Shown here in pieces: positions 6,901 through 38,519 of a stretch of 64,000 nt of DNA (position 1 is its first letter; the number at the start of each line of letters is the position of its first letter). This DNA is from Methanobacteriota archaeon (GTDB lineage: Archaea; Thermoplasmatota; Poseidoniia; Poseidoniales; Thalassarchaeaceae): contig JABIGF010000001.1 in the NCBI GenBank assembly GCA_018650285.1, positions 34,072 to 98,071 on the forward strand, given 5' to 3'. The position numbers were made by a program, and so were the translations under genes. Under the pieces are notes generated by a model. That model had not been told where the DNA came from. It saw only the letters and a list, made by a program, of their open reading frames with translations, and ran no database searches.

Positions 6901-7698
6901 ATTTATGAAGCAGCTTTGGATGAAGGTGGTGAAATTACAACAGCGGGAAGATTTGGCCGATTACTTGAATCAGAATTGAAACCCAACGCAGGTGCGTTAT
7001 TGGCTGTGGAATGGCCATTAACATCAAAGGAGAGTAAGGGTGTTTTAGTTTCGTTACCTGAAACTGGTGAAGATGTGCTTAAAGGAATCAAATTACGGGG
7101 CACAATTGACCGCGTTGAATTAGTCCCTGTTTTAGATTCATGCTATGTCAACAAAGAAGGCCTTGACGAAGAGTGCCCACTTGACCTAGACTTAGGAGAA
7201 GAATGGCCGGCGCAAAGATTAGTCATTATTCGTGACCTTAAGTCATTAGAGGGGCCAGTTCGCAAAAAGGCTGGCGAGAGGCACAAAAGAGAATTGTTTG
7301 CAGGAGTGCAATTAGCGCTCTACGCCCGTGCTTGGGAAGTAACTCACAAAGGTGATCGCGTGATAGGGGTTGGCATCTCTGAGGTTGGTGAGGAAAGCGG
7401 CCATTACATAGAAGCAGACCCGGAATATTTCGCCCATCTTACTTCATTGAATATCGGGAAAGTTGAATGTAACACTGCTCCACTATTCCGTCGCCCTGGT
7501 GAAGATGGAGAATCACCTCAAAGTAACCCATTCAGGGCATGGATGCGTCATCGTTTGACAGCAGCTTTGCAAATTGGAGAAATGTCTGATAATGGTAATG
7601 TGATTCCAACCCCTAGTGGTATTTCTTGCACCTATTGTTCCGTAAAACAAGCTTGTAATTTAGCACCAACTGTTGGAGGTGATAAAAAATGGACTTGA
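3916..7698 (+). CDS. AddB-like subunit of a helicase-nuclease: an inactivated SF1 helicase-like N-terminal region plus a C-terminal RecB-family PD-(D/E)XK nuclease with a Cx2Cx5C Fe-S-type cysteine cluster
   Basis: C-terminal nuclease motifs GTIDRVELV, IIRDLKS and Q-x-x-x-Y (VQLALY). The terminal CTYCSVKQAC has the same Cx2Cx5C spacing as the AddB/Cas4 Fe-S ligands. No intact Walker A is present: a degenerate P-loop-like LLIIHSTEASRRATL sits near the N-terminus. The gene overlaps the downstream helicase gene by 10 nt (ATGGACTTGA). The ORF track starts at 3907 (GTG); the first ATG is at 3916. Confidence 0.6.
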   Translation: MVKQPSLTMEEIPPGYSPGWLLSHFLHQSQDPRSLNQGGPSQLLIIHSTEASRRATLNQLAGDADIDGPVDRTSHHTLDSLVASLHAELRQPRLLPASGPFSILLHAECKKAAQRLEFPLMHSLPDHYWGKGKTRDLTNLSKSLREEDVDTDFSPDLQSFHRIIKGVSNQLNGIHPDEQMKSLVSILEQLQSEDIPFGLSSIDGILMLDHPPTLSPLRQRLVNSLVRFRPLHILANFGSYRLGVHGFVANDIAAIRDEASLPKWIPPHSPFTVEQLNSYQESVKQPIRMLVPRIERSIESTHALIDAALGFDSPPNSIMIIDPSVDSNYELWSSMLDSFGFHLPTLSAPLKESPGVHWLSAIVSLSHFEDAWSLPQLRAIAIQGTLQFNSDWLIGEQHPTLADLRPIPDVDVLEEVSRGFHLLGGQGALFRWLHSLARKPIANAYQDEEDLCRRHEATQWWLLSLANRLKPLLSTMDASVLEDNMVAIGCYTGEQLPLPPAANTGDEWLYQFGEMLQWHLLTAKLDGQMNQTIGGLQQLFESHLSLRTSQRLLSQKSPIRGMDWVDEILTLIDSTTLEGTKIADSKLRLLTPTDALGCHADLVIITNLDSESWNTSPASIPGLSEAVRTEIAVLSPDDNLRTARHSWMHLLNSGKEVIILDADEDESSQPSTPLSEWLASAIWDPMSSPIIPSFISPDEVFRIDGDHKSRWGLSFLKRGNFPVARPSDVVIDNGSFELIVTGSHQRDQRQRAGIDMQQARNPMQGALNPAAVTIALDSSLMEDRLSRQPRIGSEETPYLPNSLHGEVLSVDDLKITPGSTMGKGILPRNYPAWPTIGLKVGSSKTMTIDPRPLVPNATAIKDYDRRHGFEDGPSSKTNIWSPSRLTQWLSCPRKGWLQNRLRAESEDDEDDDVDVRTRGLLIHEVWADFICEFLEMEVGKERENLVPASLATANIDEHILRQRLLQIIDEKAPWLRRSDAIATVRRLDLVGLNCEIYEAALDEGGEITTAGRFGRLLESELKPNAGALLAVEWPLTSKESKGVLVSLPETGEDVLKGIKLRGTIDRVELVPVLDSCYVNKEGLDEECPLDLDLGEEWPAQRLVIIRDLKSLEGPVRKKAGERHKRELFAGVQLALYARAWEVTHKGDRVIGVGISEVGEESGHYIEADPEYFAHLTSLNIGKVECNTAPLFRRPGEDGESPQSNPFRAWMRHRLTAALQIGEMSDNGNVIPTPSGISCTYCSVKQACNLAPTVGGDKKWT

Positions 7699-10600
7699 AT
7701 AGAGGGCAGACCTTAGGTCTGAATTTAGATATGCACATTGTTCTTGATGCAGGCGCAGGAACAGGAAAGACTGCATGTATTGTTCAAAGAGTGCTCGAAC
7801 ATTATCTTTCAGAGGATCAACGGGCAACGAGATTGTTACCACCGGGTCCAAGAGAGGTTGATTTTGGAGGAGGTTTCCTACAAACTCCAGCAAAGGATAG
7901 AGAAAATCTTCGTCAATGGCGTGGATTATTACCAACTGAAGTTGTTGTTCTAACATTTACTGTCAAGGCTGCTGATGAAATGCGAGACCGGATGCGTAGT
8001 GAACTTGCCCGTTTGAGAGCAGGCCCGCGTGGCGTTAGGAATGGGCTACGTTATGACCCTAGAATTCGTAATGAAGGTTTGATTGAACAGTTGACAATGT
8101 TGCTTGATGAAGCACCTATTGGCACCATTGATTCATTTTTGAATCGGTTGGTGTCATCATACCGAAGTTTGCTTGGCGACCGCCCAACACATGAACAGAT
8201 GTCTGATGCTCAAAGGGCACTCCTGATGGAACGTGCATTGAGTTCGTTATGGCGAATACGTAGTGAAAAACACGCTGGCGATTTGCGAATTATGTCAGTT
8301 TCTCCGGCAGATTTCCTTGCTGCAAGAAATCGGCTTTCACATCAATTAGGGGGGCGTTCTAGAACTCAAAAAATAGTTTCCCAACTTCTTCATAATTCAA
8401 TATTTGTTGATACCGTTAGACGTTCTTTAGAATCTCATTCAGGCCGAGTTGATGCAGAAGCCATTAGAGCAAGTTTTCTCTCACATTTGAGAGCAGATGA
8501 AATTCATGATTTTGCTTTGGAGTTATTTTCAATTTGTGATGATTGGCTCAATGCTGCAAAACAGCGTTCTGAGGAACTTGGTTTGCCTGCAGCGTTACTA
8601 AGTGATACACGTGTAAATGCCTTGGATACACTTGTTGATAATGGAATACCTGATGATTTGTGGGACAAGTTATTGTGGGTATATCATGCAACTTTAGCAA
8701 TATGTAGTAAATCATCAATTGAAAATATTGTTCCCTCTTCTTTCCCACGGGGTCTATTGCCAAATACCGATGGTTGGGCTTCAGGGGTGCAAAAACTCAG
8801 TTCAATCAAAGACAAGGATGTACGGGCTGCAGTAAAAGAGGCGATGGAAGATAGTCAAAATCGTTCAAAGATACTTTTTGGCACTATAAGGGGCATGAGA
8901 ATTAGGTCATGTGCAATGATTTCTAATCTTCTTGACCCACGATTAGGGCCACCATGCTGCCCTACTGATTCGGCAGTACATGTAGTTCGTTTATCTGACC
9001 CATTCCCATCATATATTGATGATGAACCAGTTTCTCTTGAAGCTGAGACAGATGCACGAATTATTGCTGATTTACTTATTGTTCACAAGGCCGCTGAAGA
9101 TGTACTAACTGAATTGAGATTGCAAGAGGGACTTCATGATCATTCAGACGTAACTCAGGCTGCTGAAGATTTGTTGCTTGCGCGGTGCCCTCGAATTTGT
9201 ACTCGTTGGTATCCGCCTGACATCACAGCAGCATTGAATGCAATTGATGATGAACAACCTTGGAGAGATGAACATATTCACGCGGCAATTTCATTGTGTG
9301 GAAACCCAGATGATGGTGAAATTGCTAGACACCATGTTGACTACCCAATGAAATTAGTCAAAGAGGACTTAGAGAGAAGGTATGTGATTTTGAAAACGCT
9401 CAGAAGAAGATTTAGGGCTTTCATTATTGATGAGGCACAAGATAATTCCAATCAACAATGGCGTTTACTCTCTCGTTTGTGGGGTGAGAGAGAAGAGAAA
9501 GAAGGTGACCCCGAGCCACCAAACTCTCCGTGGCAACCGACTGTATGTTGGGTCGGTGACCAAAAACAGAGTATCTATGGGTTTAGACAAGCACAAGTCA
9601 GTGGAATGGCAAGATATACTGTTCATTTGCGGGCTATTAACGAACATGAATATGCAAGTGAACCTCGTCTATTACTGAAGCCTGCATTGCGGCGCCGAGA
9701 TGCAGCACGTGACCCACGATTGTTGGAAATAAAGAACTTCATTACTGGATTAGATTATGTGAATCATCGACCAATTCCAGAAGAGGCTTGGGTAGAATTT
9801 GACCGAGGAGATGATGATAGAAGATTGGACCAATCAGATGTGATTAGGCGCACTCAGGGGCATGTCGATTTGGTGACAAATTATCGTACTTGTAATGATT
9901 TATTGCAAACTATGAACGAGTGGTGGGTTGACCTTTTTGACCCACGCCACCACCTATTCCCTGGCGATTGGTACGCTTATGCAAAGGGCCTTAGAGCACA
10001 TCGAATAGAAGAATCAGGCCAATTAGAATGGTTGTTACCTATCGCAACTGGTGAAACGAGTAATCCGCCATCAGATTTGACTATTCCACTTGATCCGTTC
10101 TCTCTTGGTTCAGCAGCAAAGCAAGTTCATCTTGAACACGAGTTAGTAGCCACTAGAATTCGTTCATTAATTGATGGTGTCCCAGCATCGGTTCTTTCCA
10201 GTGAATTGGAATCAACTATCGTCCCTTCGTCTGATAACATTGAACCTCGTGATATCATGATATTGATGCCATCAAGAACTCATATGCAAGATTTGATTCG
10301 TCGTCTTGATGACCTTGGTATTCCGGCATTAGCCGACCAAGAAGGCGGTCTTCTTGAGCAACCTATTGTAATGGCACTTTCTGCATTATTACAACTAACA
10401 GCAAGACGTTTTGATGTTAGCCGCGCAGCTACTTTGACAAGAACTCCATTAGTTGGATTCAATGATATTGAATTGGAGAAATATATTGCAGATAAAGACG
10501 GCCCCCAAGATTTGTTAGAAAGGTTACAAGACCATGCAATAAGTAAGCCACAGAGAGAATTATTTTGCCGTTGGAAGCAACTTGCAGACTGCAATAGAAT

Positions 10601-12671
10601 TCTCAAAATGCTAGAAGAAACATTAGATTATTCTGATTTACTTCTTGCATATCCTAATCAAGTTGACCGACAGTATGCTGAGCAATTTTTGGCATTAATT
10701 AGGTCCCAAATGGCAGAAGCAGGCGGCGATGTAGTTCTACTTGCAGAGAGAATAAAACGCCTTTCATCAGTGAATGGAAAATTGCTTCCAGGAGAAGCGA
10801 TGCCGCCTTCAAATGCAGTAAGAGTGATGACGATTCATGCTTCAAAAGGTCTGCAATCAAAAGTAGTCGTTGTATGTGGTCTATTTTCAGAAAATCAGAG
10901 TAACCTTGGCCAATCTCTTCGTTCAAACATATTAGTATCTCAACAGATGTTTTCTCCACGAGCGAAACCTTGGAAGAGTAGAGATGCAATTGATAGTGGA
11001 AGTTGGAGGCTATCTACTGAAGTATTGACGTCACAAGTCCAAGCGGAGGCTCGTCGTTTGTTCTATGTTGCTTGTACTAGAGTCAAAGATAAATTGATAC
11101 TTGCGGGGGCTCCTAAGAATTGCAAAATCAACTCTACTTTGGGCGAGATTGAAATCCCTTGGAAATATAAGCCCACACCGCGATTTGGTTGGATGTGGTT
11201 AGAAGCAATTCGCCAGGCTGCTCGAAGAGATGGCCTATTGGAAGCGCCTTGGTTGATTGGAGATGACAGCGATTTGCCAGCACCACTTCCTTTCCGTTCA
11301 AAAGGTACCTTGACCATCTTACCAAATCAAATGATGACTAACCCATCTCTTGCTCCTGGGTTGTTGAATAGTTTGTCTATTTTCCACCATCCAGATTATA
11401 TTCTTCCTTCTCGTGAAATCACCTCACCTTTAGTAAAGTACACCCGTCTACAAGGGAGTGCGAGATTGCCAATTGTCAATGATACAGAATCTCTTTCACT
11501 ACGAAAAGCAAGTCGTAAAATTCGTATTGCTCCTCACATGTTAGATTCGGCGAATAGTTGCATACGTCGACATTGGTTAAAGCAATATGTTGGGATATCA
11601 AGTGAAGCAATTAATCTTCCATTAATCCAACAAAATGAGGGTGAAAATTCTGAAGGAGATTTTGATGAGCCAATTGGTCCAGCAGCGAATGTTCTGGGTT
11701 CACTTTTCCACCGACTTGTTGAACTTGGTATACCAAATCCCGGTGTTGAAAATGGTAAAGCATCAACTCCACTTTCAAGTCAATGGTTTACTCCAACACC
11801 TAACCGTATGTTAGACCAGTCTCTAATTTTCCAAGTGCTGGACGAATTATTGCCTGCAACAGTAGATAGAGATATTACAGCAAAAATGCTACAACGAATG
11901 GCTGAAATATTCATTGAAGGCAAACTTGGTAAACTTGTGAAAGGTGATGCAATTGAAGGCCTTCATGTAGAGGCATTGAGAACCGAATGGCCATTCTTAA
12001 TCAATATCAAGAAGCCCCTTTCAAGCACCTATTCAACTCGTTGGACACCCCAAAAGCAAGAGATTGTAGAAGAGATAGAATCTCTAACATTTGAGTTAGA
12101 TGGTATTGCCGATTTGGTGTTGTGTCAAACCGATGGTAAGTCAAGAAATACGATAAGAGCAATTGACCTAAAAACGACGGGAGCAATGTCTATTCTGAAT
12201 CCTCCTCAGAAGACAGAAGGTACAATTTACGAAATCCCATCAAATCCTGATGATGAAATAATTAGAACAGATGCAGAAGTCGAATTATTGAATCATTATC
12301 GAATCCAACTCTATCTTTACCATCTTTGTCTTGTTAGGCAAGAGAGAATGAGGGCTGAGAGTGGAATCGGTGAAAGAGAAGTTCTACGGCCAGCGATCCT
12401 AGTTGCTACAACTGGCCGATTGATATCTTGGACAGAAGAAGAATTTGCTGTAATTGAAGAAGAATTCAATCAATTAATCAAACAACTGGCAGAAGTGGAG
12501 ATTGAACTTCGTGGTGATGAATCTAATTTCCCAAGAATGCCGATTGAAAACAAAGATATTTGTGATAAATGTCCATATTTCCAAGGAAACATCAAGTTAT
12601 GTGCTCCTCAAGGTATAGCACTTGGAATGGCTCAACAGGGCGAATCTGAAGAAAATGGATTTAAGATTTGA
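7689..12671 (+). CDS. AddA/RecB-like UvrD-family SF1 helicase with a C-terminal RecB-family nuclease domain (1660 aa)
   Basis: SF1 helicase motifs are present: Walker A AGAGTGKT, Ia TFTVKAADEMRDRM, II FIIDEAQD, III VGDQKQSIYGFRQA, IV NYRT, V VMTIHASKGLQSKVVVV and VI RRLFYVACTRVKDKLILAG. The C-terminal nuclease carries the motifs GIADLVLCQTDG, IRAIDLKTTG and Q-x-x-x-Y (IQLYLYH), followed by a terminal CDKCx9C. Confidence 0.8.
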   Translation: MDLNRGQTLGLNLDMHIVLDAGAGTGKTACIVQRVLEHYLSEDQRATRLLPPGPREVDFGGGFLQTPAKDRENLRQWRGLLPTEVVVLTFTVKAADEMRDRMRSELARLRAGPRGVRNGLRYDPRIRNEGLIEQLTMLLDEAPIGTIDSFLNRLVSSYRSLLGDRPTHEQMSDAQRALLMERALSSLWRIRSEKHAGDLRIMSVSPADFLAARNRLSHQLGGRSRTQKIVSQLLHNSIFVDTVRRSLESHSGRVDAEAIRASFLSHLRADEIHDFALELFSICDDWLNAAKQRSEELGLPAALLSDTRVNALDTLVDNGIPDDLWDKLLWVYHATLAICSKSSIENIVPSSFPRGLLPNTDGWASGVQKLSSIKDKDVRAAVKEAMEDSQNRSKILFGTIRGMRIRSCAMISNLLDPRLGPPCCPTDSAVHVVRLSDPFPSYIDDEPVSLEAETDARIIADLLIVHKAAEDVLTELRLQEGLHDHSDVTQAAEDLLLARCPRICTRWYPPDITAALNAIDDEQPWRDEHIHAAISLCGNPDDGEIARHHVDYPMKLVKEDLERRYVILKTLRRRFRAFIIDEAQDNSNQQWRLLSRLWGEREEKEGDPEPPNSPWQPTVCWVGDQKQSIYGFRQAQVSGMARYTVHLRAINEHEYASEPRLLLKPALRRRDAARDPRLLEIKNFITGLDYVNHRPIPEEAWVEFDRGDDDRRLDQSDVIRRTQGHVDLVTNYRTCNDLLQTMNEWWVDLFDPRHHLFPGDWYAYAKGLRAHRIEESGQLEWLLPIATGETSNPPSDLTIPLDPFSLGSAAKQVHLEHELVATRIRSLIDGVPASVLSSELESTIVPSSDNIEPRDIMILMPSRTHMQDLIRRLDDLGIPALADQEGGLLEQPIVMALSALLQLTARRFDVSRAATLTRTPLVGFNDIELEKYIADKDGPQDLLERLQDHAISKPQRELFCRWKQLADCNRILKMLEETLDYSDLLLAYPNQVDRQYAEQFLALIRSQMAEAGGDVVLLAERIKRLSSVNGKLLPGEAMPPSNAVRVMTIHASKGLQSKVVVVCGLFSENQSNLGQSLRSNILVSQQMFSPRAKPWKSRDAIDSGSWRLSTEVLTSQVQAEARRLFYVACTRVKDKLILAGAPKNCKINSTLGEIEIPWKYKPTPRFGWMWLEAIRQAARRDGLLEAPWLIGDDSDLPAPLPFRSKGTLTILPNQMMTNPSLAPGLLNSLSIFHHPDYILPSREITSPLVKYTRLQGSARLPIVNDTESLSLRKASRKIRIAPHMLDSANSCIRRHWLKQYVGISSEAINLPLIQQNEGENSEGDFDEPIGPAANVLGSLFHRLVELGIPNPGVENGKASTPLSSQWFTPTPNRMLDQSLIFQVLDELLPATVDRDITAKMLQRMAEIFIEGKLGKLVKGDAIEGLHVEALRTEWPFLINIKKPLSSTYSTRWTPQKQEIVEEIESLTFELDGIADLVLCQTDGKSRNTIRAIDLKTTGAMSILNPPQKTEGTIYEIPSNPDDEIIRTDAEVELLNHYRIQLYLYHLCLVRQERMRAESGIGEREVLRPAILVATTGRLISWTEEEFAVIEEEFNQLIKQLAEVEIELRGDESNFPRMPIENKDICDKCPYFQGNIKLCAPQGIALGMAQQGESEENGFKI

Positions 12672-25703: not shown

Positions 25704-26018
25704 TCAGCCGAATAGAGAGCCAAGACCCTCGAATTCAGCGCCGTCGTCCTCATCTTCCTCTGCAGCAGCTTCCTCTTCAGGAGCAGCTTCAGCGGCAGTA
25801 GAACCACCAGCAGCTGGTGCGGCAACCGGTGCAGCGACAGCAGCGCTCATCGCTTCTCCGATGTCAACGTCACTTAGGCTAGCAACGAGCGCTTTTACGC
25901 GCGCGTCGTCAGCAGAGACGCCAGCGGCCTTTAGGACCGCACCGACATTCTTTTCGTTGATCTCATTCTCAGCCGAGTGCAACAACATTGCAGTATATAC
26001 ATATTCCATTTTTTTCAC
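25704..26018 (-). CDS. rpl12: 50S ribosomal stalk protein P1 (aL12)
   Basis: [19 protein letters not shown]... followed by an Ala/Glu-rich hinge and the conserved C-terminus [15 protein letters not shown]. Confidence 0.9.
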
Positions 26019-26024
26019 TTCCTT

Positions 26025-27035
26025 TTAACCAAATAGGTCACCGAGGCCATCAAAGGCCCCTTCTTCTTCTTCCGGCTCGGCTTCTTCAGCAGCGGCTTCA
26101 GGAGCCGCTGCCTCAGTAGGTGCAGCGGCAACGGCTGTTGCTGCTGAACCGAGCATACTCGATAGTTCATCATCGAGTGCGGAAGAATCTAGTTGGCCCG
26201 CAAGGGCCATTGCACGCGCATTTGCACGAGCGATGAATAGAGGCACAGTTTCACTGTTAGTGACACCAGCCTCGACAGCGACAGAGAGCGCCTCGCTCTT
26301 TGCCTTTGATAGGAGTACGGGCATTGTTTCTGGTGTGAACCAGCGTACATTGCAAGCAACATTGAATGAGCCTGATACAGCTTGTGCAATTTTGTTGCGG
26401 AATCCATCAAGGTCAAGGTCAAGGTCTTCAGTAGGCATCAAGATTCCATCTTGAATTGCACCACAGAGAATAATTCCGATTTCAATCGGCTTGATTCCAA
26501 GTTTGTCAAGCATTAGACCAAGGTCACCAGGAATTGAGTCACCTGCATTTACAACAGTAACCGTTTTTTGAATCATTACCTTACCTTTGTCAATCTTTGC
26601 AGGAATACCGACTGCTGAAAGTTCTCCAACAATTGGTCCAGGTGCGAAATCAGTTACACCTTCTTCAACAATAATGTCTTGTGGTGCGATATCACCTTCT
26701 TTTGCAGAGCGACCAGTTCGGGTCTTTTCGAGTTCGTTGAATAATTGAAAAGCATTCAATTGCGATGTATGGACAAGTACAGGTTGATCAGCCTTTGCCA
26801 TCATCTCTTCTAGCATAGCATCGTCCAAACCAACCTCTTTCCATGCTATACGGAAGAGTGTCTTCTTTGCCATTGTTAGAGTCATATCGCTCTTTCGTAG
26901 TTCTGCACGCATTCCTAGCATTGCAGTTGCTGGGACTCCAGTAGTATCAACGATTCCAAGAACTCCATCCTTCTTGAGAAGATCAGTAAGGTCAGACACG
27001 CGGTCTCTTTTCCAGCCCATGACTTTTGGAATCAT
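26025..27035 (-). CDS. rpl10: 50S ribosomal protein P0 (uL10)
   Basis: Stalk-type C-terminus EEEGAFDGLGDLFG. The start is at the internal ATG (MIPKVMGWKRDR...), overlapping the L1 stop by 4 nt (ATGA). The ORF track extension to 27140 uses a GTG. Confidence 0.85.
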   Translation of the reverse strand: MIPKVMGWKRDRVSDLTDLLKKDGVLGIVDTTGVPATAMLGMRAELRKSDMTLTMAKKTLFRIAWKEVGLDDAMLEEMMAKADQPVLVHTSQLNAFQLFNELEKTRTGRSAKEGDIAPQDIIVEEGVTDFAPGPIVGELSAVGIPAKIDKGKVMIQKTVTVVNAGDSIPGDLGLMLDKLGIKPIEIGIILCGAIQDGILMPTEDLDLDLDGFRNKIAQAVSGSFNVACNVRWFTPETMPVLLSKAKSEALSVAVEAGVTNSETVPLFIARANARAMALAGQLDSSALDDELSSMLGSAATAVAAAPTEAAAPEAAAEEAEPEEEEGAFDGLGDLFG

Positions 27036-27679
27036 CCGCCTTCCACCTCCACTTTGATAGAAGGACCCATGCTGGTTTTGATGTATAGTGAACGAATGTT
27101 TCCTACACCACGTTCCAATTTGGATGTTACACGCTTCCACATTTCAATGGCATTTGCTGTAATGTTTTCTTCAGATTGTGTACGGGAACCAACAATTGTG
27201 TGGAAAGTAACTCTATCACGGCTACGGATAATTGCTGTGCTCTGTAGACCAGAAGCAATCATGCCAGGGTCAACATTTGGTGGGACTGGGCGAGGCATTT
27301 TACCACGTGGACCTAGAACAATACCGAGGTATCGTCCGATGGTCGCCATGTGAGGTACTTCAGAGAGGAAGAAGTCGTGCCTTTTTGCTAATTTTCGAGC
27401 CTTCTGACGGTTACCACCCAAATCTTCAATTTGACTTGGATCAATAACGACTAAGCCAGCTTCTTTTGCTTTGGTAGCCATTTCACCACCAGCAAAGATT
27501 GCGATGCTGATTTCTTTACCGCGCCCGTGTGGGAGACGTACATTTTCTTCAATTCTGTTTGAAGGATTCTTCAAATCAACATCTTTGATGGTAAAAGCCA
27601 TCTCAATGCTTTCAACGAACTTGCGCTCAGGAGCCATTTCTAGCGCCTTTTTTATTGCTTCATTAATTTTGTTTTCCAT
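27032..27679 (-). CDS. rpl1: 50S ribosomal protein uL1
   Basis: L1 fold sequence (MENKINEAIKKALEMAPERKF..., GRGKEISIAIFA...). GGTGA lies upstream of the ATG at 27679. It sits at the conserved L11-L1-L10-L12 cluster position. Confidence 0.85.
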   Translation of the reverse strand: MENKINEAIKKALEMAPERKFVESIEMAFTIKDVDLKNPSNRIEENVRLPHGRGKEISIAIFAGGEMATKAKEAGLVVIDPSQIEDLGGNRQKARKLAKRHDFFLSEVPHMATIGRYLGIVLGPRGKMPRPVPPNVDPGMIASGLQSTAIIRSRDRVTFHTIVGSRTQSEENITANAIEMWKRVTSKLERGVGNIRSLYIKTSMGPSIKVEVEGG

Positions 27680-27732
27680 TTTTCTCACCTCTGCGGTAAA
27701 CGAGGTTTCCCTCTCCCGCAATTCGTGGTTGT

Positions 27733-28038
27733 TTAATTGAATCTGCTATCATGTTCTCCTGCTTTTACTTGCTTGATGAAATCTTTTGGCACGATGCCTT
27801 CGATATGGCAGCGCATTGATACGCATGTTCCCATGACTTCTAATGAACGCTGCTTGACACCTACGCCTGTCAAATCATCCGCCTTCTCTTTTGAAATTGT
27901 AATAATTTGGTCGAGTGTAATGTTGTGAACTTCTGGGTCTGAGCCGGTATCAGTTTCACCTTCCCATGAGCCATTGAATTTCTTACCCTTGCCAATAACG
28001 GCGGTGCGAATGCGTCTTGCTGTCCAGTTGTCTGACAT
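27733..28038 (-). CDS. rpl11: ribosomal protein uL11, C-terminal rRNA-binding domain only (101 aa); the N-terminal domain is not encoded
   Basis: The sequence aligns to the archaeal L11 C-terminal domain (LDQIITISKEKADDL...LEVMGTCVSMRCHIEGIVPKDFIKQVKAGEHD). The ATG at 28038 is preceded by GGTGA. An in-frame TGA lies 3 codons upstream, and the spt5 stop is 66 nt upstream. Confidence 0.65.
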   Translation of the reverse strand: MSDNWTARRIRTAVIGKGKKFNGSWEGETDTGSDPEVHNITLDQIITISKEKADDLTGVGVKQRSLEVMGTCVSMRCHIEGIVPKDFIKQVKAGEHDSRFN

Positions 28039-28103
28039 TGATTCACCTCACTATTTTGGTTTCGGCCGACCTGCTTCCCCTATTTAACCGCCGCGAGTTA
28101 CTC

Positions 28104-29036
28104 TCAGTTGACGCGCTCCGTAACATGCACATTATCAGCACGCATTGTAATTGGGATTGGTATTGCAGCATCGAACAACTCAACAGTGACTTCTTCTTTG
28201 CCTTCTTCAACACCTGTTACGCGTGCTCGGTTGCCCTTGAAATGACCAACTCTAATTTCCACAATACTTCCAACTTGAATGCCAGCAGTTGCAGATTTAG
28301 GTTCTAGATAATTGGAAACAACAGCGAGTGGTGCTTCACCAGGCAATACCTTTGCAGCTCCTCTCATTCGTGTAGTGTCATTTCCAGCGACTCCAATTAA
28401 TTTCTCAACATGGTGTTTTGCGCTTGCTTCAACGAAAATATATCCGCGCATGAGGCGTGGGTGAATTACAGAAAATACTTCGCCTTGAACATCTCTCAAA
28501 GATCCTGTTCCTGAAAGGCGAGCACGCACCTCATTTGCAATCTTCTGTTCTTGACCAATTGTGGTCTTTAGCATGTAAAGGAAACCAGCAACGTCACCAT
28601 ACATATCACCAAGTTGTGAAACGGTGGGCCGTGGTTGCATAGAACTGATATCATCAGCATCTTCAATCTCATCTGGGCTCAATACATTGAGAAAACCGGG
28701 GTCAATCCACATTGCCTCTTCGTAGAGAGTTCTTGGCTCCATGACATTGGTGTCACTAATCATTAGAATTGGAGTGACTTCGTTTAGGCGGTTTCCAAAC
28801 TCAATACCACGTGCAGCACCCTTGCGGACAAAAGTTAACGATTCCTGAGTGATACCAGTTGAATCTTCAATTCTCATGTAAACATCATCTAGGTCACCTT
28901 CTAGGTTTCCAACACCATAGATGCCGTCCCAAGAGTTTGCAAAATCTGCAACGCCTTCACTGCGTTTTAGCAATAGCAATTTATCCTCGAAGCGAATGAA
29001 TACAATAAATCCATCAGACATTTTTTTATCCCCCAT
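28104..29036 (-). CDS. spt5: transcription elongation factor Spt5 (NGN + KOW) with a roughly 135-aa N-terminal degenerate Nudix-like extension
   Basis: NGN region GFLYMLKTTIGQEQKIANEV...RGYIFVEA and a KOW region GSIVEIRVGHFKGNRARVTGVEE. The N-terminal part has a Nudix-like fold pattern (DGFIVFIRFEDKLLLLKRSEG...WDGIYGVGNLEGDLDDVYMRIEDSTGI) but lacks the canonical REUxEE. Confidence 0.7.
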   Translation of the reverse strand: MGDKKMSDGFIVFIRFEDKLLLLKRSEGVADFANSWDGIYGVGNLEGDLDDVYMRIEDSTGITQESLTFVRKGAARGIEFGNRLNEVTPILMISDTNVMEPRTLYEEAMWIDPGFLNVLSPDEIEDADDISSMQPRPTVSQLGDMYGDVAGFLYMLKTTIGQEQKIANEVRARLSGTGSLRDVQGEVFSVIHPRLMRGYIFVEASAKHHVEKLIGVAGNDTTRMRGAAKVLPGEAPLAVVSNYLEPKSATAGIQVGSIVEIRVGHFKGNRARVTGVEEGKEEVTVELFDAAIPIPITMRADNVHVTERVN

Positions 29037-30510: not shown

Positions 30511-30670
30511 ATGGCTAGCCTCACTAAAGCCGCCTTAACCTTGACGATGGCAATGGGAGGCTTGGAGCGGGTTATCGCACCCATCCGCAATAGCCGAAAA
30601 GGAGAATCTCCTCCCTTAGGGAGGACAAATAGCCCGAAGTTCAAAGTGCAAGGGGTTGTCTGTCGGGCTG

Positions 30671-33600
30671 ATGAAGTACAAGCCAATGTTGTTAGTGATT
30701 ATTTTTTTAACCGCTTCTTTGCAGGTTTTTGCAGCACCTGAAAGCGTGCTTGAAGAAGAATCACCTATTGCTAGTACTAGTGCTAGTCAATGGGAAATGG
30801 CAGATGGGCCAGAAATACAATCGGGATGGTCTCCAAATGTATGGCAACCAGATTCAAAAAGTGCATTTTGGGAGATGGATTTTAGCCCTGATGGCAGCAA
30901 ATTAGCGGCTGTTGAAATATCTGATAACCGCCTTTTTGTTTGGAATGTTGACGACGGAAGAGTTCTATTGTGGATACACCATGATGCGGCAATTGTCGAT
31001 GTAGTTTGGCTATCAAACGAGTGGGTGCTTGTAGCAGATGGAGGAATCAATTGGTATTCATATCAAGTGATGGACAATGGTACATCATCCCCTCAATCCT
31101 CTACATTGATGCGCTCTGGACAATGGACTGATTCACTTACTGGAACTTATCCAGGGTGGTTATGGGGTTTAGACGCTTCTGTAAACAACTCAAAAGTAGC
31201 ATTTTGTGGAGATATTGACCAGATGAATATGGGTGGCGAAGTGGTTGTTGCTAACCTAAATCACTTCATTGACGGCTCGCCGGCAAATGCCCAACACTTT
31301 TTCCCACAATATTGGGTTACTGATTGTGCAATTTCTCCCAATGGTGGCACGGTAGCTGCCTTGGGTCGAAATGTGACCTACTACCCTGATGGGAATGTCA
31401 CTTATCGTGATGTAGTCTATGGTGTTGAAGTAGCAACTGGTGCTCTCTCTTGGAGTCGTTTTGTAGGCGGCGACAATTCTTCAGCATGGGCTGTTACTTG
31501 GGAGCCTGGTGGTGGCAGTTACACTGTTGGATATAATCACCCAAAACCAAGCCAACCATCTGTTTGGGAAGGTGTTGTTACGGCTTTTGCAGAGGTCGAT
31601 GGGTCAATTTTTTGGTATTCAACAATTCCTCAGAATTTGAGTAGTATACGTTGGTTACCAGATGGCTCATATCTAGGGGTTGGATTGTATGACCCCGGTA
31701 GAATATCATTCATCAATACAGCGGGCCAGATTCAAACAGATTTTGGTTGGCATTCGGTTCGTTCAGGTTCAACAACAATTCCAGAAGATGTTACCGCTGT
31801 TGCAACAACTACTATTCCAGCAACAACAACAGCAAACCAATTGATGGCATCGGCAGGAAAAGATGGTGGAATTGAGATTTGGAATATTGATGTTTCAACT
31901 TTTGAAATAGTCCCATATCGAAGATTTGGGCCCTCTATAATGAGAGAAATTGCAGTTCACCCTAACCAAGATTTAGTAGCGATTGCTGAATCATCAGGTG
32001 TTCTAACAGTTCGCTCAGGAATCAATGGTTCAATTGTTTCACAATGTTTCCACCCTGAATTTGGTCAGTTAGTCTATGAGATTCCATTTGCAAAATCTGT
32101 CGAATGGATGAATGGTGAAGCGGTAGCTGGATTTAGTGATGGAGTAATATTTTCATGCAACGAATTTAATAAATTCTCTTGGACTTTTGATTTAAGAAAT
32201 TTTCAGACAGTTGGCTCTTTCGGTAGAGTTGCAGTCCAACCCAACAGCAATCACATTGCAATTTCTTGGTCGTCAAATACAACGAATAACACACGTGATG
32301 GACATGTGGCAATTATTGACCCTATGTCGGGCCAATTTTTCAAAGAGTGGCAATATGCCGAAACTCATTGGACATTAGATTTCAATGACTTTGGTACAAA
32401 ATTAGCTTCAGTTGGTCAATCTGGTGGGGTCAGATTATGGAATACTAGCGATCCGAACCCAGCAAATTGGATAGACGATGGCTCACCATATTCTCACACC
32501 GGCTATGTTGGCGTTACACAATGGATGCCTGGTGCAGATTTATTGGTCACAGCCGGCTGGGACAAACAACTCATTTTTTGGGATGTTCAATCACAAATGT
32601 CGATGATGCAATTAACATTGCAATACGAAGCATTTGCTTTTGCTGACTTGATGGCTCAAGGACTTGCAGTTGTTGCAACCGGAGATTCATCAACATCTCA
32701 AGTTGGTCAATTAGAGTTTTATGATATTCAAAATAGTACTCTTGACTCAACATATCAACTGAATCATATTCCTCGTGGATTGGGTGTTCTTCCCATTGAA
32801 CAATCTTTGGTTGTGGTGAACCATACTGGTACTCTTCTAATCCTCAAGAAGGATGCGGATGGAGATGGCTGGGCGGATGATGTAGACGCCCTCCCCAATG
32901 ACCCTACTCAACATTTGGATAACGATGGGGATGGATGGGGTGATGACCAGACTCAAGTTACAGGAGATGCTTGCATCTCAATTCAAGGCACTAGTCATGA
33001 AGATAGAAATGGCTGCCCTGATAGCGATGGAGATGGTTACAGCGATGCTGATGCAACTTGGCTCGCTCACCCTGTAGGAAATGCAGATGCCTTCCCGAGC
33101 AACCCCTCACAATGGCGAGATAGTGATGGTGATGGATATGGTGATATCTATTCATATTCTGTTGACGCACAAGGCCTTCGCACAGGTGAAGTAGGAGATG
33201 CATTCGCTAATGATGGTGCACAATATCGTGATTTAGATGGTGATGGTTGTGGTGACAATTATTCTTACGGCGATGATAACGGAATGAGAATTAATGAAGC
33301 CGGTGATGCATTTATTTCAGATCCTACTCAGTGCAACGATTTTGATGGTGATGGATATGGTGATAATTACACCTATGTGAATAATTTTAATGGATTGCGT
33401 GAAGAGAATGGCGACGCATTTCCAACAGATTATCTTGCTTGGTCAGATGTTGATGGTGATGGTTGTCCAACAAATTCTGCTACCGGATTAACGATTGACC
33501 TTTATCCAACAGATGGCCAATATTGTGATGAAGATTTACCATTTTGGTTGCCTATTAATTTACAGACAGTAATTACCAACGGCGTAAATCTTTGGAATAT

Positions 33601-34333
33601 TCAGATGTCTTGGGACTCTGCCGCAAATAATACAGACATGCTTCGTTTGGAAGTGGCTTTGAGTAATAATACAACAATGCCAATAGATGATGAATACACA
33701 ACATTGCAAGTATGGACTACAATCGGTGCGGTAAGCGAGGACGTTTCTGTAGACCCTGTGGAGGGTAACGAAATTCTTCATCTACGATTTACAGCTATCC
33801 CTGATGATGGCGCATTATTAAGTAGAAATTGGTCTGCAGTATGGGTTGCAAATGAAACAGAAATCGTGGATAATTCTTCAAATGATAATTCTTCAAATGA
33901 TAATTCTTCAAATAACGACTCGGATGGTGATGGAGTAATAGATTCTGAAGATAACTGTCCAAATGATTTTGGCACACCAGAAAATTATGGTTGTGTTTCT
34001 AATACATCTAATCAGACAGGAAGTGACGAAAATAATGATGAATTTGGTGAAACATCGTCATTGTGGTATGTTGGAATTGGAATTGGTTTGTTTATCGTTG
34101 TGATTCTTGGATTTATGGGTATTCGATACAATCGTAAGACAGACACTATCGCAGAAGGCGTCTATACCATGGGTCAAGCAAGTCATGCCCCTCCATCAAT
34201 ACCCCCTACACCAATAATGCACCCACCATGCAAGGATTGTGGCGGTTTTGTTCAAGAGGTAATCAATCAAAATGATCGTTGGACATGGTGCCCTTCGTGT
34301 CGTGAATGGCAAGAGTTCCTTGGTAAGAGTTAA
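30671..34333 (+). CDS. giant cell-surface protein with a signal peptide, beta-propeller-like repeats, thrombospondin-type-3-like Ca-binding repeats, a C-terminal TM helix and a cytoplasmic Zn-ribbon tail
   Basis: Signal peptide MKYKPMLLVIIFLTASLQVFAAP. Numerous W/G-rich propeller-like blades. A run of D-x-D-G-D-G-x-x-D repeats (e.g. DADGDGWADDVDALPNDPTQHLDNDGDGWGDDQ). A TM helix (LWYVGIGIGLFIVVILGFMGI), then CKDCGG...CPSC. Confidence 0.55.
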   Translation: MKYKPMLLVIIFLTASLQVFAAPESVLEEESPIASTSASQWEMADGPEIQSGWSPNVWQPDSKSAFWEMDFSPDGSKLAAVEISDNRLFVWNVDDGRVLLWIHHDAAIVDVVWLSNEWVLVADGGINWYSYQVMDNGTSSPQSSTLMRSGQWTDSLTGTYPGWLWGLDASVNNSKVAFCGDIDQMNMGGEVVVANLNHFIDGSPANAQHFFPQYWVTDCAISPNGGTVAALGRNVTYYPDGNVTYRDVVYGVEVATGALSWSRFVGGDNSSAWAVTWEPGGGSYTVGYNHPKPSQPSVWEGVVTAFAEVDGSIFWYSTIPQNLSSIRWLPDGSYLGVGLYDPGRISFINTAGQIQTDFGWHSVRSGSTTIPEDVTAVATTTIPATTTANQLMASAGKDGGIEIWNIDVSTFEIVPYRRFGPSIMREIAVHPNQDLVAIAESSGVLTVRSGINGSIVSQCFHPEFGQLVYEIPFAKSVEWMNGEAVAGFSDGVIFSCNEFNKFSWTFDLRNFQTVGSFGRVAVQPNSNHIAISWSSNTTNNTRDGHVAIIDPMSGQFFKEWQYAETHWTLDFNDFGTKLASVGQSGGVRLWNTSDPNPANWIDDGSPYSHTGYVGVTQWMPGADLLVTAGWDKQLIFWDVQSQMSMMQLTLQYEAFAFADLMAQGLAVVATGDSSTSQVGQLEFYDIQNSTLDSTYQLNHIPRGLGVLPIEQSLVVVNHTGTLLILKKDADGDGWADDVDALPNDPTQHLDNDGDGWGDDQTQVTGDACISIQGTSHEDRNGCPDSDGDGYSDADATWLAHPVGNADAFPSNPSQWRDSDGDGYGDIYSYSVDAQGLRTGEVGDAFANDGAQYRDLDGDGCGDNYSYGDDNGMRINEAGDAFISDPTQCNDFDGDGYGDNYTYVNNFNGLREENGDAFPTDYLAWSDVDGDGCPTNSATGLTIDLYPTDGQYCDEDLPFWLPINLQTVITNGVNLWNIQMSWDSAANNTDMLRLEVALSNNTTMPIDDEYTTLQVWTTIGAVSEDVSVDPVEGNEILHLRFTAIPDDGALLSRNWSAVWVANETEIVDNSSNDNSSNDNSSNNDSDGDGVIDSEDNCPNDFGTPENYGCVSNTSNQTGSDENNDEFGETSSLWYVGIGIGLFIVVILGFMGIRYNRKTDTIAEGVYTMGQASHAPPSIPPTPIMHPPCKDCGGFVQEVINQNDRWTWCPSCREWQEFLGKS
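33871..33915 (+). repeat. 15-nt tandem repeat x3 (taattcttcaaatga) encoding NSSND repeats inside the surface protein
   Basis: Perfect or near-perfect direct repeats visible in the sequence. Confidence 0.6.
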
Positions 34334-35264: not shown

Positions 35265-38200
35265 TCAACTCTTGCGCTTAACAGCTCTTCGTTTTGCAGC
35301 CTTCTTTGGACGGCGCTTCTTTTCTTTCTTCTTTGGCGCATCATCTTCATCGTCGCCCCATTCATCATCGGAATCGTCGTCATCATCAAAATCGTCGTCA
35401 TCAACTTCTTCAACAACATCTTTTGATTTCTTGCGGCGCTTCTTTTCAGTGGTATCGGTTGCGAATGGGTCGCCTTCATCATCTAATTGCTTTGTTTCCT
35501 TTGGCTTTGATTCAAGTTCAGCGAGGCCAGCATCTGCAGCATCTGCAGAACCAGCATCACCGCCCATGAATTCCATCATCCACTCGTCGTCTTCGTCGTA
35601 ATCTTCATCTCCACCCTTTTTCTTCTTAGATGGGTCTTGAGCAGCAAATACTCCCATTGTGATGGCGAGTAGTAATAGAAGCAGATTGAAGGCTACAACT
35701 GCAAGGATGATGATGTAGGGAGGGCTAGTCAATGTTATTGCTGCGGCTGTTTCCTCTTCTTCTGTAGTAAATGGCGAGTCGCCACTTGCACAGAGAGTTA
35801 GTCCACTCAGATTCTCAAAACAGTGGTCCACATAGAATGATGTAGTGAACGATTTTTGATTTCCAGCAGTATCGATTGCTACGATTTCAACACGGTGATC
35901 GCCTGGCCACTCAAAGGTTGATGCCGGTTCTTTCATGCTGAAAACAATAGTATTTTCTGGAGCATCATTTGGAGTGATGTCTGTCACATTTTCCCATTCA
36001 AATTCAGTTCTAATGAATTCTCCAAAATGGGTGAAACGGTACTTTACTTGAAGGAGTGCCACATCATCACTAACAACTCCATGAACTGTGATTTCATCCC
36101 CGTAGAGATACTTACTTTCGTAGGACGGAGAGAATAACTCAATGGTTGGTGATTCAGCATCTATCGACCAATTGATTATTGTTACATCTTGCGAATTACC
36201 GACCATATCTATCAGATTCGCTGTGACTGAAAGGTTCGTAGTATCCATGCCGGCAGGGATAGGGAAATCCCATACATAGTGAGTATTAGAACTAAGGAAT
36301 GGTGTAGCGCGAGTAATTTCGCTCTCTGGGGTGAAGGTTGTTCCAACTCCCAAATCTACATTGTAATCATCTGAAGAAACATGTATCAGAGGGAACTCTT
36401 GAAGTGGTTCATTACTGTAAATATGTAATCTGTAATCGCCACTCATCAAAGCGCCTTCACTCATTTCATCTAGACCTGATTGTGCGATAGTAATTTCAGC
36501 ATCAGGCGCTGTTGTATCTTCATGAACATACCAAGCATTTGAGCGATTAGTAAGAGAGTCTCGTGAGTTGCCCCAAATATCTGCAATTGTAAGTGCATAC
36601 CAAGTGTATCGATTCAATCCCTCTTCTAAGTATATTTCACGTAATACAGTGGTTTCTGCAGAGTGTGCTTCATAATTTTCTATTTGAATTTCCCACCCTG
36701 CACTATCAGAAATATTTCCTGTTTCATTGTTAGTGAAAGGAGTTCCTAAGTGGCGCCAAATGGTATAGGTCTCATTCTCTTCAGCAAGAGAATTCATCCA
36801 CGAAAGAAGCACCGTCTTTTGGCTACCTTGAAGCATTGGTTGAGCGAGTTGAATTGGTGCTGGTGCAAGTGTATCTTCACGTACAGGCAAGATCACACAG
36901 TTTTGCTGGAAACGTGTATCTTCATAGGTAGCATTCAAGTGATTGTAGCGAGTTACTGAAGTAATACAGTAGTAAGAGAGCACGTCTTTTGCATCTTCCA
37001 CAGGCACGATTACGGTTTGAACGCCGTCTGGCACAGTTGCAACTAGAGTTGCTTCTAATGATAGATTACTTGATGCGGATAGTCTTGTCCATGAATGCCA
37101 GATATGGTAGTATTCACCTTCTGCACCCATTTGGTCAGACCAAGTGACTTCGGTTTGTGCATTCTCAATATATTCTGCTTGTACATTAGTTGGTTCAGCA
37201 ACCCATGGGTCAAATGCGTTTTCCATGATTGGTCCGGCAATTGCAGATGGTAGTACAGATGCGTTATGGTTACCACGGGAATCAGATGCTGTGACGGCAT
37301 AGTAAGCGTATCCGAGGGTTCCTCTTTCAACTTCGTATCGGTACTCGCCAACTCCAGTTTGGATCGCCGCGATGTGTTCTACGGATGGGTTGGTGGTATT
37401 ATTGAAAGGACTACCAGATCTCCAAATGTGATAGACCGCATTACTCTCACCTGAAATATCAGTCCACGCTATTGTGGTGTTTCCAGTTCCACCACTAGAC
37501 TCAGCGATGAATGATGCAATGACACCTTCTACATCCAATGGTGCGACATTGTCTTCTTTGACAGGAAATTCTTCATCCATGGTATTGACGCCACCGATGA
37601 AGCGAGCATCTTCGTAACTGAGATATTCGTAAGTCACAGAGTAGTAAGCATCAACGTCAGTGTTTGGGGGAACATCAAAAGAAGTTGTTGAAACGCCAGC
37701 GGGTTCTATAGCTACGAGTTGTTTATCCATTGCTGGCCAAGTGATTCTAGATGCGGGGTTAAGGTGGCGGTATATTTTCGAGACATAGGCATTTGGCCCA
37801 GTTTCAAGCAGTGTTCCTGGTTGTAATTGATTGAGGTTAATCCAATCAATTTTGGTTTTGCTTGTTTCAGGGAAGAAAGTGGCATTCACCGAAAATGGTG
37901 CGGTTATGTCGTGAGTGAATTCCATGATAGGTTGTCCCGTTTGTGAAACATCCATTTCCATAAATGCTCTAATTGAACCATCATCTAATTGTGTTGCAAT
38001 ACCGTAGAAAAATGTGCCATTAACTCCTGGTGGGAGAGGATGGGTGATGGAATGTTGTTGGCTAGGGCAGGTGACAACATTTCCAGTACAGGCAGAAATA
38101 TTTGCGATGTATGGGATTGTACCATTTTCAATAATGCTCATATTCATTTGAGCATCACTGCGATAAACCAAGTAACGACTTGCCTGCAACATTTGTGCGA

Positions 38201-38387
38201 TAGTTAGATTTTGAGTACCAATATTCTCCCACATAATATCGGTGGATTCTGAATATTGGTTAAATTGGGCTGCGATATTTTGTGCTTGCATATCGGTGGG
38301 TGACGATTGATCTGCGGCTACTGCAGGAACCAAAGGTGCCAATGACATCATTAGCAAAATAGCAGTGAGTAGTAGTGTTTTTCCCAT
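35265..38387 (-). CDS. large secreted cell-surface protein with multiple Ig/fibronectin-like beta domains, a C-terminal TM helix and a highly charged K/D/E-rich cytoplasmic tail
   Basis: Signal peptide MGKTLLLTAILLMMSLAPLVPAVAADQ and a Thr/Ser/Asn-rich beta-rich ectodomain. A TM helix (IIILAVVAFNLLLLLLAITMGVFAA) is followed by a tail (KKKKGGDEDYDEDDEW...KKRRPKK). Confidence 0.5.
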   Translation of the reverse strand: MGKTLLLTAILLMMSLAPLVPAVAADQSSPTDMQAQNIAAQFNQYSESTDIMWENIGTQNLTIAQMLQASRYLVYRSDAQMNMSIIENGTIPYIANISACTGNVVTCPSQQHSITHPLPPGVNGTFFYGIATQLDDGSIRAFMEMDVSQTGQPIMEFTHDITAPFSVNATFFPETSKTKIDWINLNQLQPGTLLETGPNAYVSKIYRHLNPASRITWPAMDKQLVAIEPAGVSTTSFDVPPNTDVDAYYSVTYEYLSYEDARFIGGVNTMDEEFPVKEDNVAPLDVEGVIASFIAESSGGTGNTTIAWTDISGESNAVYHIWRSGSPFNNTTNPSVEHIAAIQTGVGEYRYEVERGTLGYAYYAVTASDSRGNHNASVLPSAIAGPIMENAFDPWVAEPTNVQAEYIENAQTEVTWSDQMGAEGEYYHIWHSWTRLSASSNLSLEATLVATVPDGVQTVIVPVEDAKDVLSYYCITSVTRYNHLNATYEDTRFQQNCVILPVREDTLAPAPIQLAQPMLQGSQKTVLLSWMNSLAEENETYTIWRHLGTPFTNNETGNISDSAGWEIQIENYEAHSAETTVLREIYLEEGLNRYTWYALTIADIWGNSRDSLTNRSNAWYVHEDTTAPDAEITIAQSGLDEMSEGALMSGDYRLHIYSNEPLQEFPLIHVSSDDYNVDLGVGTTFTPESEITRATPFLSSNTHYVWDFPIPAGMDTTNLSVTANLIDMVGNSQDVTIINWSIDAESPTIELFSPSYESKYLYGDEITVHGVVSDDVALLQVKYRFTHFGEFIRTEFEWENVTDITPNDAPENTIVFSMKEPASTFEWPGDHRVEIVAIDTAGNQKSFTTSFYVDHCFENLSGLTLCASGDSPFTTEEEETAAAITLTSPPYIIILAVVAFNLLLLLLAITMGVFAAQDPSKKKKGGDEDYDEDDEWMMEFMGGDAGSADAADAGLAELESKPKETKQLDDEGDPFATDTTEKKRRKKSKDVVEEVDDDDFDDDDDSDDEWGDDEDDAPKKKEKKRRPKKAAKRRAVKRKS

Positions 38388-38519
38388 CTGATTACAGCGC
38401 ACGCTCAATGCCTCCGTAGGGGTTGGTGGTAATGAAGCGGTTATGAGGCTGACGCAGAATGAGTGGCTAATGCGTCAAATCTGGGCGATAATAATTATCA
38501 TCATCGCCTTTATCGCCCC

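Follow-up and report, generated by a model that had tools for sequence, protein, structure and literature searches.

Bacteria, archaea and eukaryotes are all considered to have the N-terminal domain (NTD) of ribosomal protein uL11 in the GTPase-associated centre of their ribosomes. The C-terminal domain (CTD) of the protein binds tightly to H43/H44 of 23S rRNA and stabilises this centre; the NTD by itself touches the rRNA at few points and stays on the ribosome through a loose tether to the CTD. The NTD moves during the elongation cycle and reaches EF-G/eEF2/aEF2, the ternary complex and release factors by way of its helix 1; the pocket in which thiostrepton, nosiheptide and micrococcin bind is made up of the NTD and A1067/A1095. 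In the 64-kb stretch of DNA analyzed here (the window), the rpl11 gene encodes a protein of only 101 aa, and a first-pass annotation made from the sequence proposed that just the rRNA-binding CTD is left. Is this a genuine uL11 of a ribosome that has dispensed with the NTD, is the missing domain encoded elsewhere, or is the gene a secondary or damaged copy?

Gene order and expression signals at the rpl11 locus

Pfam and NCBIfam assignments gave the gene order ftsZ, secE, spt5, rpl11, L1, L10 (P0) and L12 (P1), all on the minus strand. The 101-aa ORF occupies the orthologous genomic position secE-spt5(nusG)-rpl11-rpl1-rpl10-rpl12, and both the ORF and its neighbours agree with the spt5-rpl11-rpl1-rpl10-rpl12 placement made in the first-pass annotation. 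The features of the locus, in the direction of transcription, are as follows.

28104-29036, minus strand: spt5 (NusG homologue), 310 aa (PF03439 and PF00467; TIGR00405 over residues 154-307)
28039-28103, minus strand: spt5-rpl11 spacer, 65 nt, with a TATA-like box, leader, Shine-Dalgarno site and in-frame stops
27733-28038, minus strand: uL11 (rpl11), 101 aa, C-terminal rRNA-binding domain only (ORF, PF00298, PRK01143, AlphaFold2)
27032-27679, minus strand: uL1, 215 aa from the ATG at 27679 (PF00687, E = 2.7e-43; PRK04203, 257 bits, above cut-off)
26025-27035, minus strand: uL10 (P0), 336 aa (PF00466 and PF17777; EXT/insertion domain kept)
25704-26018, minus strand: P1/aL12 stalk protein (PF00428, E = 5e-13)

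The ATG start codon of rpl11 (28038-28036) is preceded by a Shine-Dalgarno sequence, GAGGTGA (28049-28043), in line with the good start context described previously. The in-frame stop that had been noticed three codons upstream of the ATG is actually a pair of successive stops, TAG (28053-28051) and TGA (28050-28048), which together span 28053-28048. The spt5 stop codon (28106-28104) lies upstream where it had been placed; the spacer between the two genes is 65 nt long rather than the 66 nt first given. Across 75 loci, the distance from the spt5 stop to the rpl11 start was 62 to 86 nt, compared with a coding length of approximately 210 nt for an NTD, and the argument that no room is left for the domain at this position therefore extends well beyond the window.

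The spacer contains a BRE/TATA-like box, TTAAATA (28087-28081, minus strand). In an alignment of eight loci from the window's subfamily, the segment TCGCGGCGGTTAAATAGGGGAAGCAGGTCGGCC (28054-28096, minus strand), which is followed by the Shine-Dalgarno site, was nearly invariant, though the uL11 proteins of those loci share only 76-93% identity. Judging from its resemblance to the archaeal TATA consensus, the TTAAATA box probably acts as a BRE/TATA promoter, and TCGCGGCGGTTAAATAGGGGAAGCAGGTCGGCC could represent this box together with a conserved 5' leader, making it a candidate regulatory RNA element. In locus L087, which has a 93-aa uL11 (P0281 type), two extra ORFs of 161 and 129 aa are found between spt5 and rpl11 (5008-5884). 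We considered them as possible L11-related genes and rejected them, as they gave no confident Pfam match and none was L11-related. Locus L086, which is otherwise like L087, is without these extra ORFs.

The 101-aa protein is a complete uL11 C-terminal domain

Pfam analysis of the 101-aa ORF returned PF00298 alone (profile positions 26-67 of 69, E = 8.7e-6), and the score of 26.5 bits exceeded the gathering score of 21.4, assigning the protein to the uL11 CTD family. The L11 N-terminal domain, PF03946, which carries the PPLGPxLG helix-1 motif, had no match in the 101-aa protein. The archaeal L11 equivalog model of NCBIfam (PRK01143) was covered only at positions 92-158 of 164 and scored 53.6 bits, below its cut-off of 162. 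Likewise, uL11 chains from the PDB (M. jannaschii, H. marismortui, P. furiosus and eukaryotes) aligned with the protein from approximately residue 82-95 to their C-termini, the best of these sequence matches having E-values down to 2e-9. On all three lines of comparison, the gene encodes the rRNA-binding CTD only, as the first-pass annotation had proposed.

When aligned with full-length archaeal uL11, the 101-aa protein begins a few residues before the first CTD helix, at the canonical 'TPP' inter-domain hinge. In the commoner 92-aa form of the protein, MSARNETPHKVIQ-LG aligns with the canonical GTPPxxxLIxKELG. In the 101-aa form of the window, the stretch matching the canonical hinge and first helix is MSDNWTARRIRTAVIG, and WTARRIRTAV is placed opposite the canonical AASLILKE, just past the hinge. 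The CTD is complete, with its first helix, loop, second helix, recognition helix and C-terminal extension. The following elements were delimited.

27997-28026, minus strand: first CTD helix, residues 5-14, corresponding to canonical alpha3 'PPTxxLIKKELG' (AlphaFold2 and alignment)
27925-27996, minus strand: loop, residues 15-38, with an N-G-(S)-W motif and a 10-aa insertion (alignments)
27814-27858, minus strand: recognition helix, residues 61-75, E-V-M-G-T-C-V-S-M-R, canonical GTCxSMG (alignments and AlphaFold2)
27736-27789, minus strand: C-terminal extension, residues 84-101, PKDFIKQVKAGEHDSRFN (aligned to the C-termini of 5col_A and 1s72_I)

Within the loop, columns N21, G22 and W24 were invariant (alignment A1), and N, G and W are conserved in the MGIIb alignments; in the P0281 type, M replaces the W of the N-G-(S)-W motif. 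The insertion, GETDTGSDPE, is specific to the 101-aa subfamily and missing from the 92-aa types. The columns of the recognition-helix motif E-V-M-G-T-C-V-S-M-R were invariant or nearly so and align with the recognition helix of M. jannaschii and H. marismortui, and archaeal uL11 chains have the C-terminal extension PKDFIKQVKAGEHDSRFN as well. With 20 homologues as input, AlphaFold2 gave a model with a mean pLDDT of 77 and helices at residues 5-14, 42-51, 61-75, 84-92 and 97-100, the last two within the C-terminal extension; local pLDDT was low (55-70) in the loop of residues 15-38. Foldseek comparison of the model with the PDB ranked uL11 chains at the top, including 5d8h_C, 4v9f_I and 1mms_B (the T. 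maritima L11-RNA complex), with aligned lengths that fit the C-terminal part. The match to 4v9f_I had a TM-score of 0.71 normalised to the query and an rmsd of 2.9 Å over 96 columns. Since the protein starts at the hinge, contains the whole CTD and matches the uL11 fold, it corresponds to a clean excision of the NTD and not to a random truncation. The window gene is a genuine syntenic rpl11 orthologue that encodes the whole CTD, a three-helix bundle, without canonical residues ~1-68.

Conservation of the short uL11 across Poseidoniales

We scanned one genome per GTDB species, obtained 208 confirmed matches and studied the best 80 of these 208 loci. All 80 were from metagenome-assembled genomes (MAGs) of Poseidoniales (Marine Group II, MGII), which originated from many independent studies, and an ORF of 92-101 aa with an upstream stop was found in every one of them (80/80). 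Marine Group II archaea are among the most abundant archaea of the surface ocean. Every genome name checked among these loci (L001-L080) is listed as MGIIb (Thalassarchaeaceae) in Supplementary Data 1 of Tully et al. (2019). A profile search of 5.8 billion proteins returned 437 clusters from marine metagenomes. Nearly all of the best 120 of these 437 clusters were exactly 92 aa long; some clusters were present on >100 contigs, and some on contigs >1.5 Mb. The ftsZ-secE-spt5-L11-L1-L10-L12 synteny was kept on related contigs of up to 384 kb. Comparison with orthologous loci, suggested as a check in the first-pass annotation, revealed the identical CTD-only architecture in every related locus examined, a recurrence well past what chance could produce.

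The dN/dS ratio, calculated by the Nei-Gojobori method for pairs with 0.1 < dS < 1.5, had a median of 0.066 over 458 pairs, with representative pairs at 0.02-0.16. Taken together, the conservation, the spacer elements and the dN/dS values indicate that the gene is intact, has its own predicted expression signals and is under strong purifying selection.

In an exhaustive HMMER search of 1.84 billion cluster representatives, three subfamilies were distinguished in Poseidoniales, namely a 92-aa form (P0080), the 101-aa window type (P0001) and a 93-aa form (P0138/P0281). The 93-aa type, named 'Candidatus Poseidoniales archaeon', was found on 316 contigs with identical synteny. Its L1 is ~67% identical to the L1 of the 92- and 101-aa types, about the distance that separates these two from one another; its GC content did not discriminate between MGIIa and MGIIb. 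Among the carriers of a full-length uL11 that came to light, the nearest (P0142, locus L088) shares just 45-48% L1 identity with MGII, which argues that the NTD was lost before the radiation of the sampled Poseidoniales.

Search for an N-terminal domain elsewhere

We searched for the missing domain in all six frames of the 64-kb window and of 95 loci (6-10 kb on each side), for a total of 0.98 Mb. No NTD was found in this material with a profile HMM that combined seven archaeal NTDs, five of them taken from database proteins (best E ~1), nor by tblastn with four NTDs, those of M. jannaschii, H. marismortui, T. maritima and yeast (best E 0.06). The HMM readily detected the positive controls L088 (E = 1.7e-39), whose NTD was in the training set, and L095 (E = 3e-36), which was outside it. 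A tblastn match at 7821-7967 (E = 0.059) falls inside a 1660-aa ORF (7689-12671) and was attributed to chance. With its positive controls working, the six-frame profile scan also led us to reject an NTD read in a different frame, located in the spacer, or forming a fusion with spt5, L1, P0 or P1.

Searching the 5.8-billion-protein database with the NTD profile returned 880 short proteins, of which the best 120 were viewed. Nearly all of these 120 were singletons, and no stand-alone NTD family with large MGII-style clusters was seen among them. None of the source-named matches among the best 120 of 880 came from Poseidoniales or Thalassarchaeaceae. All 12 short NTD proteins that were inspected (12/12) turned out to be truncated or frameshifted full-length L11 genes. 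One of the short NTD proteins, P0366 from locus L095, is followed 84 nt downstream by a CTD ORF and thus represents a broken gene.

The first-pass annotation had also raised a split gene. In that case the NTD would be encoded at another genomic position, as a small gene of its own or as part of a different protein, and would join the ribosome in trans. This explanation is weakened by the searches, and we regard it as unlikely. Archaeal metagenomes do contain L11 genes that are broken or split, as seen in L095, and our scan covered the window and 95 loci. However, the two halves are adjacent in that sole example, and neither the window, in any of its frames, nor the 6-10 kb on either side of the gene in the 95 loci contained an NTD. 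No abundant stand-alone NTD family emerged among the best 120 of 880 matches, even though this database groups MGII proteins into large clusters. Moreover, a free NTD would be expected to bind poorly, given that so few rRNA contacts are its own and that the tether to the CTD is what keeps it in place.

Even less probable, in our opinion, is a paralogue, with a full-length rpl11 located elsewhere and the short gene persisting in the old locus as a specialised or regulatory CTD-only copy. In favour of such a copy are the label 'hypothetical protein' that the NCBI pipeline gives to the short protein and the scope of the scan, namely the window and 95 loci. On the other hand, the short gene is the one found at the canonical orthologous position, with its own putative promoter and Shine-Dalgarno site in every genome examined, and strong purifying selection acts on its RNA-recognition helix, which hardly varies. 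The lack of any source-named NTD-bearing match from Poseidoniales or Thalassarchaeaceae (best 120 of 880) also speaks against it. To our knowledge, two rpl11 genes are very rare in archaea. Finally, an assembly deletion (the other alternative raised by the first-pass annotation), a frameshift or a decaying gene on the window contig, for which the unusual length alone would speak, can be safely dismissed, since the same start, length and unbroken frame recur in 80/80 independent assemblies and in hundreds of metagenome clusters (>400), the start context is conserved, and a dN/dS of ~0.07 shows no relaxation of selection.

We infer from these results that the short protein is the uL11 incorporated into the ribosome and that the NTD is absent genome-wide. 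We estimate at roughly three in four the probability that the Poseidoniales ribosome carries an NTD-less uL11.

CTD-only uL11 proteins in other archaea

Approximately 20 of the 150 best representatives from the HMMER search start with M and have a complete CTD at the N-terminus without an NTD. Outside Poseidoniales, CTD-only uL11 genes were located in five contexts.

L084/L085, 6001-6417: Aenigmarchaeota (P0150), with secE-spt5-L11 abutting, then pyrB
L089, 6001-6282: Micrarchaeota (P0201), after L29 in an S10-type cluster
L091, 8001-8285: after a 261-aa spt5
L092/L093, 8001-8270: low-GC marine lineage (P0417), overlapping the spt5 stop, on 141 contigs
L094, 6001-6303: Aigarchaeota MAG (P0165)

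Another CTD-only uL11, P0179 of 'Candidatus Tiddalikarchaeum anstoanum', is known by name only. The lineages with these other apparent losses are several DPANN groups, an Aigarchaeota and the low-GC marine lineage. Four of the five genes directly follow spt5, the Micrarchaeota one being the exception, and no NTD was found in the flanks of the five. These proteins resemble those of MGII in their M start and in consisting of the CTD only, but their sequences are unrelated to them and are without the NGSW motif. In several of them the C-terminal tail is rich in Lys, Glu and Ala. L092 and MGII share only 27% identity in L1. The CTD-only proteins outside Poseidoniales apparently represent independent losses of the NTD.

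A different arrangement was observed in P0146 (139 aa, NCBI, on a 5.9-kb contig), in which the first ~25 NTD residues, MAKQTVETLIEGGKATAAPPLGPAL, are joined straight to the CTD, which is followed by a charged tail. This internal deletion may be an intermediate stage of NTD reduction. Given P0146 and the five contexts without a flanking NTD, the uL11 NTD seems to have been lost or reduced repeatedly in archaea. On balance, we lean towards the view that the NTD was discarded naturally and permanently by the order Poseidoniales and that at least five further lineages of archaea lost it on their own; the P-stalk and the sarcin-ricin loop would then be sufficient in its place.

Other features of the locus

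Poseidoniales Spt5 proteins are 299-310 aa long, not ~150 aa, and have a conserved extension of ~150 aa before the NGN and KOW domains. In the window Spt5, these two domains occupy residues 153-307, behind an uncharacterised N-terminal extension of ~150 aa encoded at 28590-29036 (minus strand). The other long spt5 genes are at 9005-9904 in L081, 4904-5818 in L086 and 6962-7747 in L091. Residues 1-149 of the window protein had no Pfam match, and a single-sequence AlphaFold2 model of the extension reached a pLDDT of 44. By eye, its beta-beta-beta-alpha pattern and the motif 'RIEDSTGI' recall a degenerate Nudix fold. We considered the extension as a relocated or analogous NTD and rejected this idea, as there was no sequence similarity. 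A long Spt5 (261 aa) is also present in L091, another carrier of a CTD-only L11, and the Aenigmarchaeota, Aigarchaeota and L092 carriers have a normal Spt5 of 149-153 aa.

Downstream of rpl11, the spacer to rpl1 (53 nt, 27680-27732, minus strand) contains GCGGGAGAGGGAAACCUCGUUUACCGC, for which a hairpin is possible by eye. Archaeal L1 autoregulatory mRNA sites are located where this spacer sits; Rfam gave no match within 27680-27732 at gathering thresholds. The ATG of uL10 (P0) overlaps the L1 stop, and the identical 4-nt overlap is found in L081. On the other side of the cluster, two very large ORFs, at 30656-34333 (plus strand, 1225 aa) and 35265-38408 (minus strand, 1047 aa), lie between ftsZ and the CDP-alcohol phosphatidyltransferase/AAA_18 genes, from which ftsZ is separated by only 114 nt in the relative L081. 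By eye, DxDGDGxxD (thrombospondin type 3-like) repeats are numerous in the 1225-aa protein, which has a membrane anchor at its C-terminus. The region of these two ORFs looks like a strain-variable surface-protein insertion. No 23S rRNA gene is present in the 64-kb window.

Predicted function of a uL11 without the N-terminal domain

In the mechanism that we propose, the CTD of Poseidoniales uL11 would dock on 23S rRNA H43/H44 beside uL10 (P0) and stabilise the folded GTPase-associated centre, a role common to all uL11 CTDs. With the mobile NTD missing, its usual contacts with aEF2, aEF1A and release factors would be missing as well, leaving the P0-P1 stalk tails and the sarcin-ricin loop to recruit factors and activate their GTPases. 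The P0-P1 stalk is intact at the locus (P0 with PF17777, P1 present). Since half of the thiopeptide pocket would be missing, intrinsic insensitivity to thiostrepton-class thiopeptides is predicted.

A published summary of uL11 function assigns rRNA binding to the CTD and contact with the factors to the NTD (PMC9122527). In yeast, G-to-A/P changes in the helix-1 GPLG motif cut poly-Phe synthesis to 9-32%, and cells without uL11 are viable and slow (PMC9122527). With helix-1 mutants so strongly affected, one would not expect a free-living organism that responds fast to lose the NTD completely, unless the loss is compensated. We speculate that the N-G-S-W loop and the Arg that replaces Gly where the recognition helix ends, both identified by alignment, are candidate compensatory contacts.

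Comparison with known systems and implications for annotation

Canonical archaeal uL11 proteins (M. jannaschii 5COL/5D8H, H. marismortui 1S72 chain I) are 30-42% identical to the window protein in the CTD and have in common with it the GTCxSM recognition helix, the C-terminal extension and the spt5-L1-L10-L12 position. The window protein differs from them by being without the ~70-aa NTD (PF03946), including the PPLGPALG helix-1 motif, by its lineage-specific N-G-S-W loop, and by an Arg for the final Gly of GTCxSMG. The nearest precedents of an NTD-less uL11 are laboratory ones, that is L11-C76 constructs, rplK mutants and yeast rpl12 deletions. Engineered bacterial L11 CTD fragments (L11-C76; PDB 1HC8, 1Y39) have the same domain content as the window uL11, and 1hc8, 1y39 and 1mms_B were among the Foldseek matches to its model. 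These fragments fold alone and bind the 58-nt H43/H44 (GAC) RNA. They are laboratory constructs, whereas the MGII truncation is the natural, selected state of a whole lineage.

Thiopeptide-resistant Bacillus and Staphylococcus rplK mutants, which have lost L11 or carry NTD deletions or frameshifts, as well as the yeast rpl12a/b double deletion indicate that ribosomes can work without the uL11 NTD (PMC11731312, PMC9122527). In B. subtilis, loss-of-function changes in rplK (frameshifts, deletion of Pro22) confer complete thiopeptide resistance at a growth cost (PMC11731312). Insensitivity to the thiostrepton class is thus a property of these mutants that is likewise predicted for the MGII ribosome. 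However, the mutants are costly, slow-growing laboratory forms, whereas the MGII form is ancient and fixed, with its CTD under purifying selection.

Searches of the open-access full-text literature brought up no description of an archaeal uL11, from MGII or otherwise, that naturally lacks the NTD, and L11 went unmentioned in the MGII genome papers that they listed. NCBI names the Poseidoniales protein 'hypothetical protein' (P0028, P0032, P0043, P0050, P0440 and others), a label explained by its failure to reach the L11 equivalog cut-off (PRK01143), and JGI names it 'ribosomal protein L11'. The annotation of a universal ribosomal protein thus has a systematic gap. Poseidoniales uL11 will be mis-scored by pipelines that annotate by domain, and marker sets that use the L11 N-terminal domain are expected to underestimate the completeness of Poseidoniales genomes.

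For the biology of Poseidoniales, the loss carries a predicted intrinsic insensitivity to thiopeptides. If the NTD has indeed been lost independently in several archaeal lineages, a recurrent selective force would be at work, for example thiopeptide-like compounds or toxins acting at the cleft between the uL11 NTD and H43-H44, or genome streamlining. If the Poseidoniales ribosome truly functions without this domain, it would be a natural evolutionary 'knock-out' that shows what the NTD is needed for in archaeal/eukaryote-type translation, and what compensates for it.
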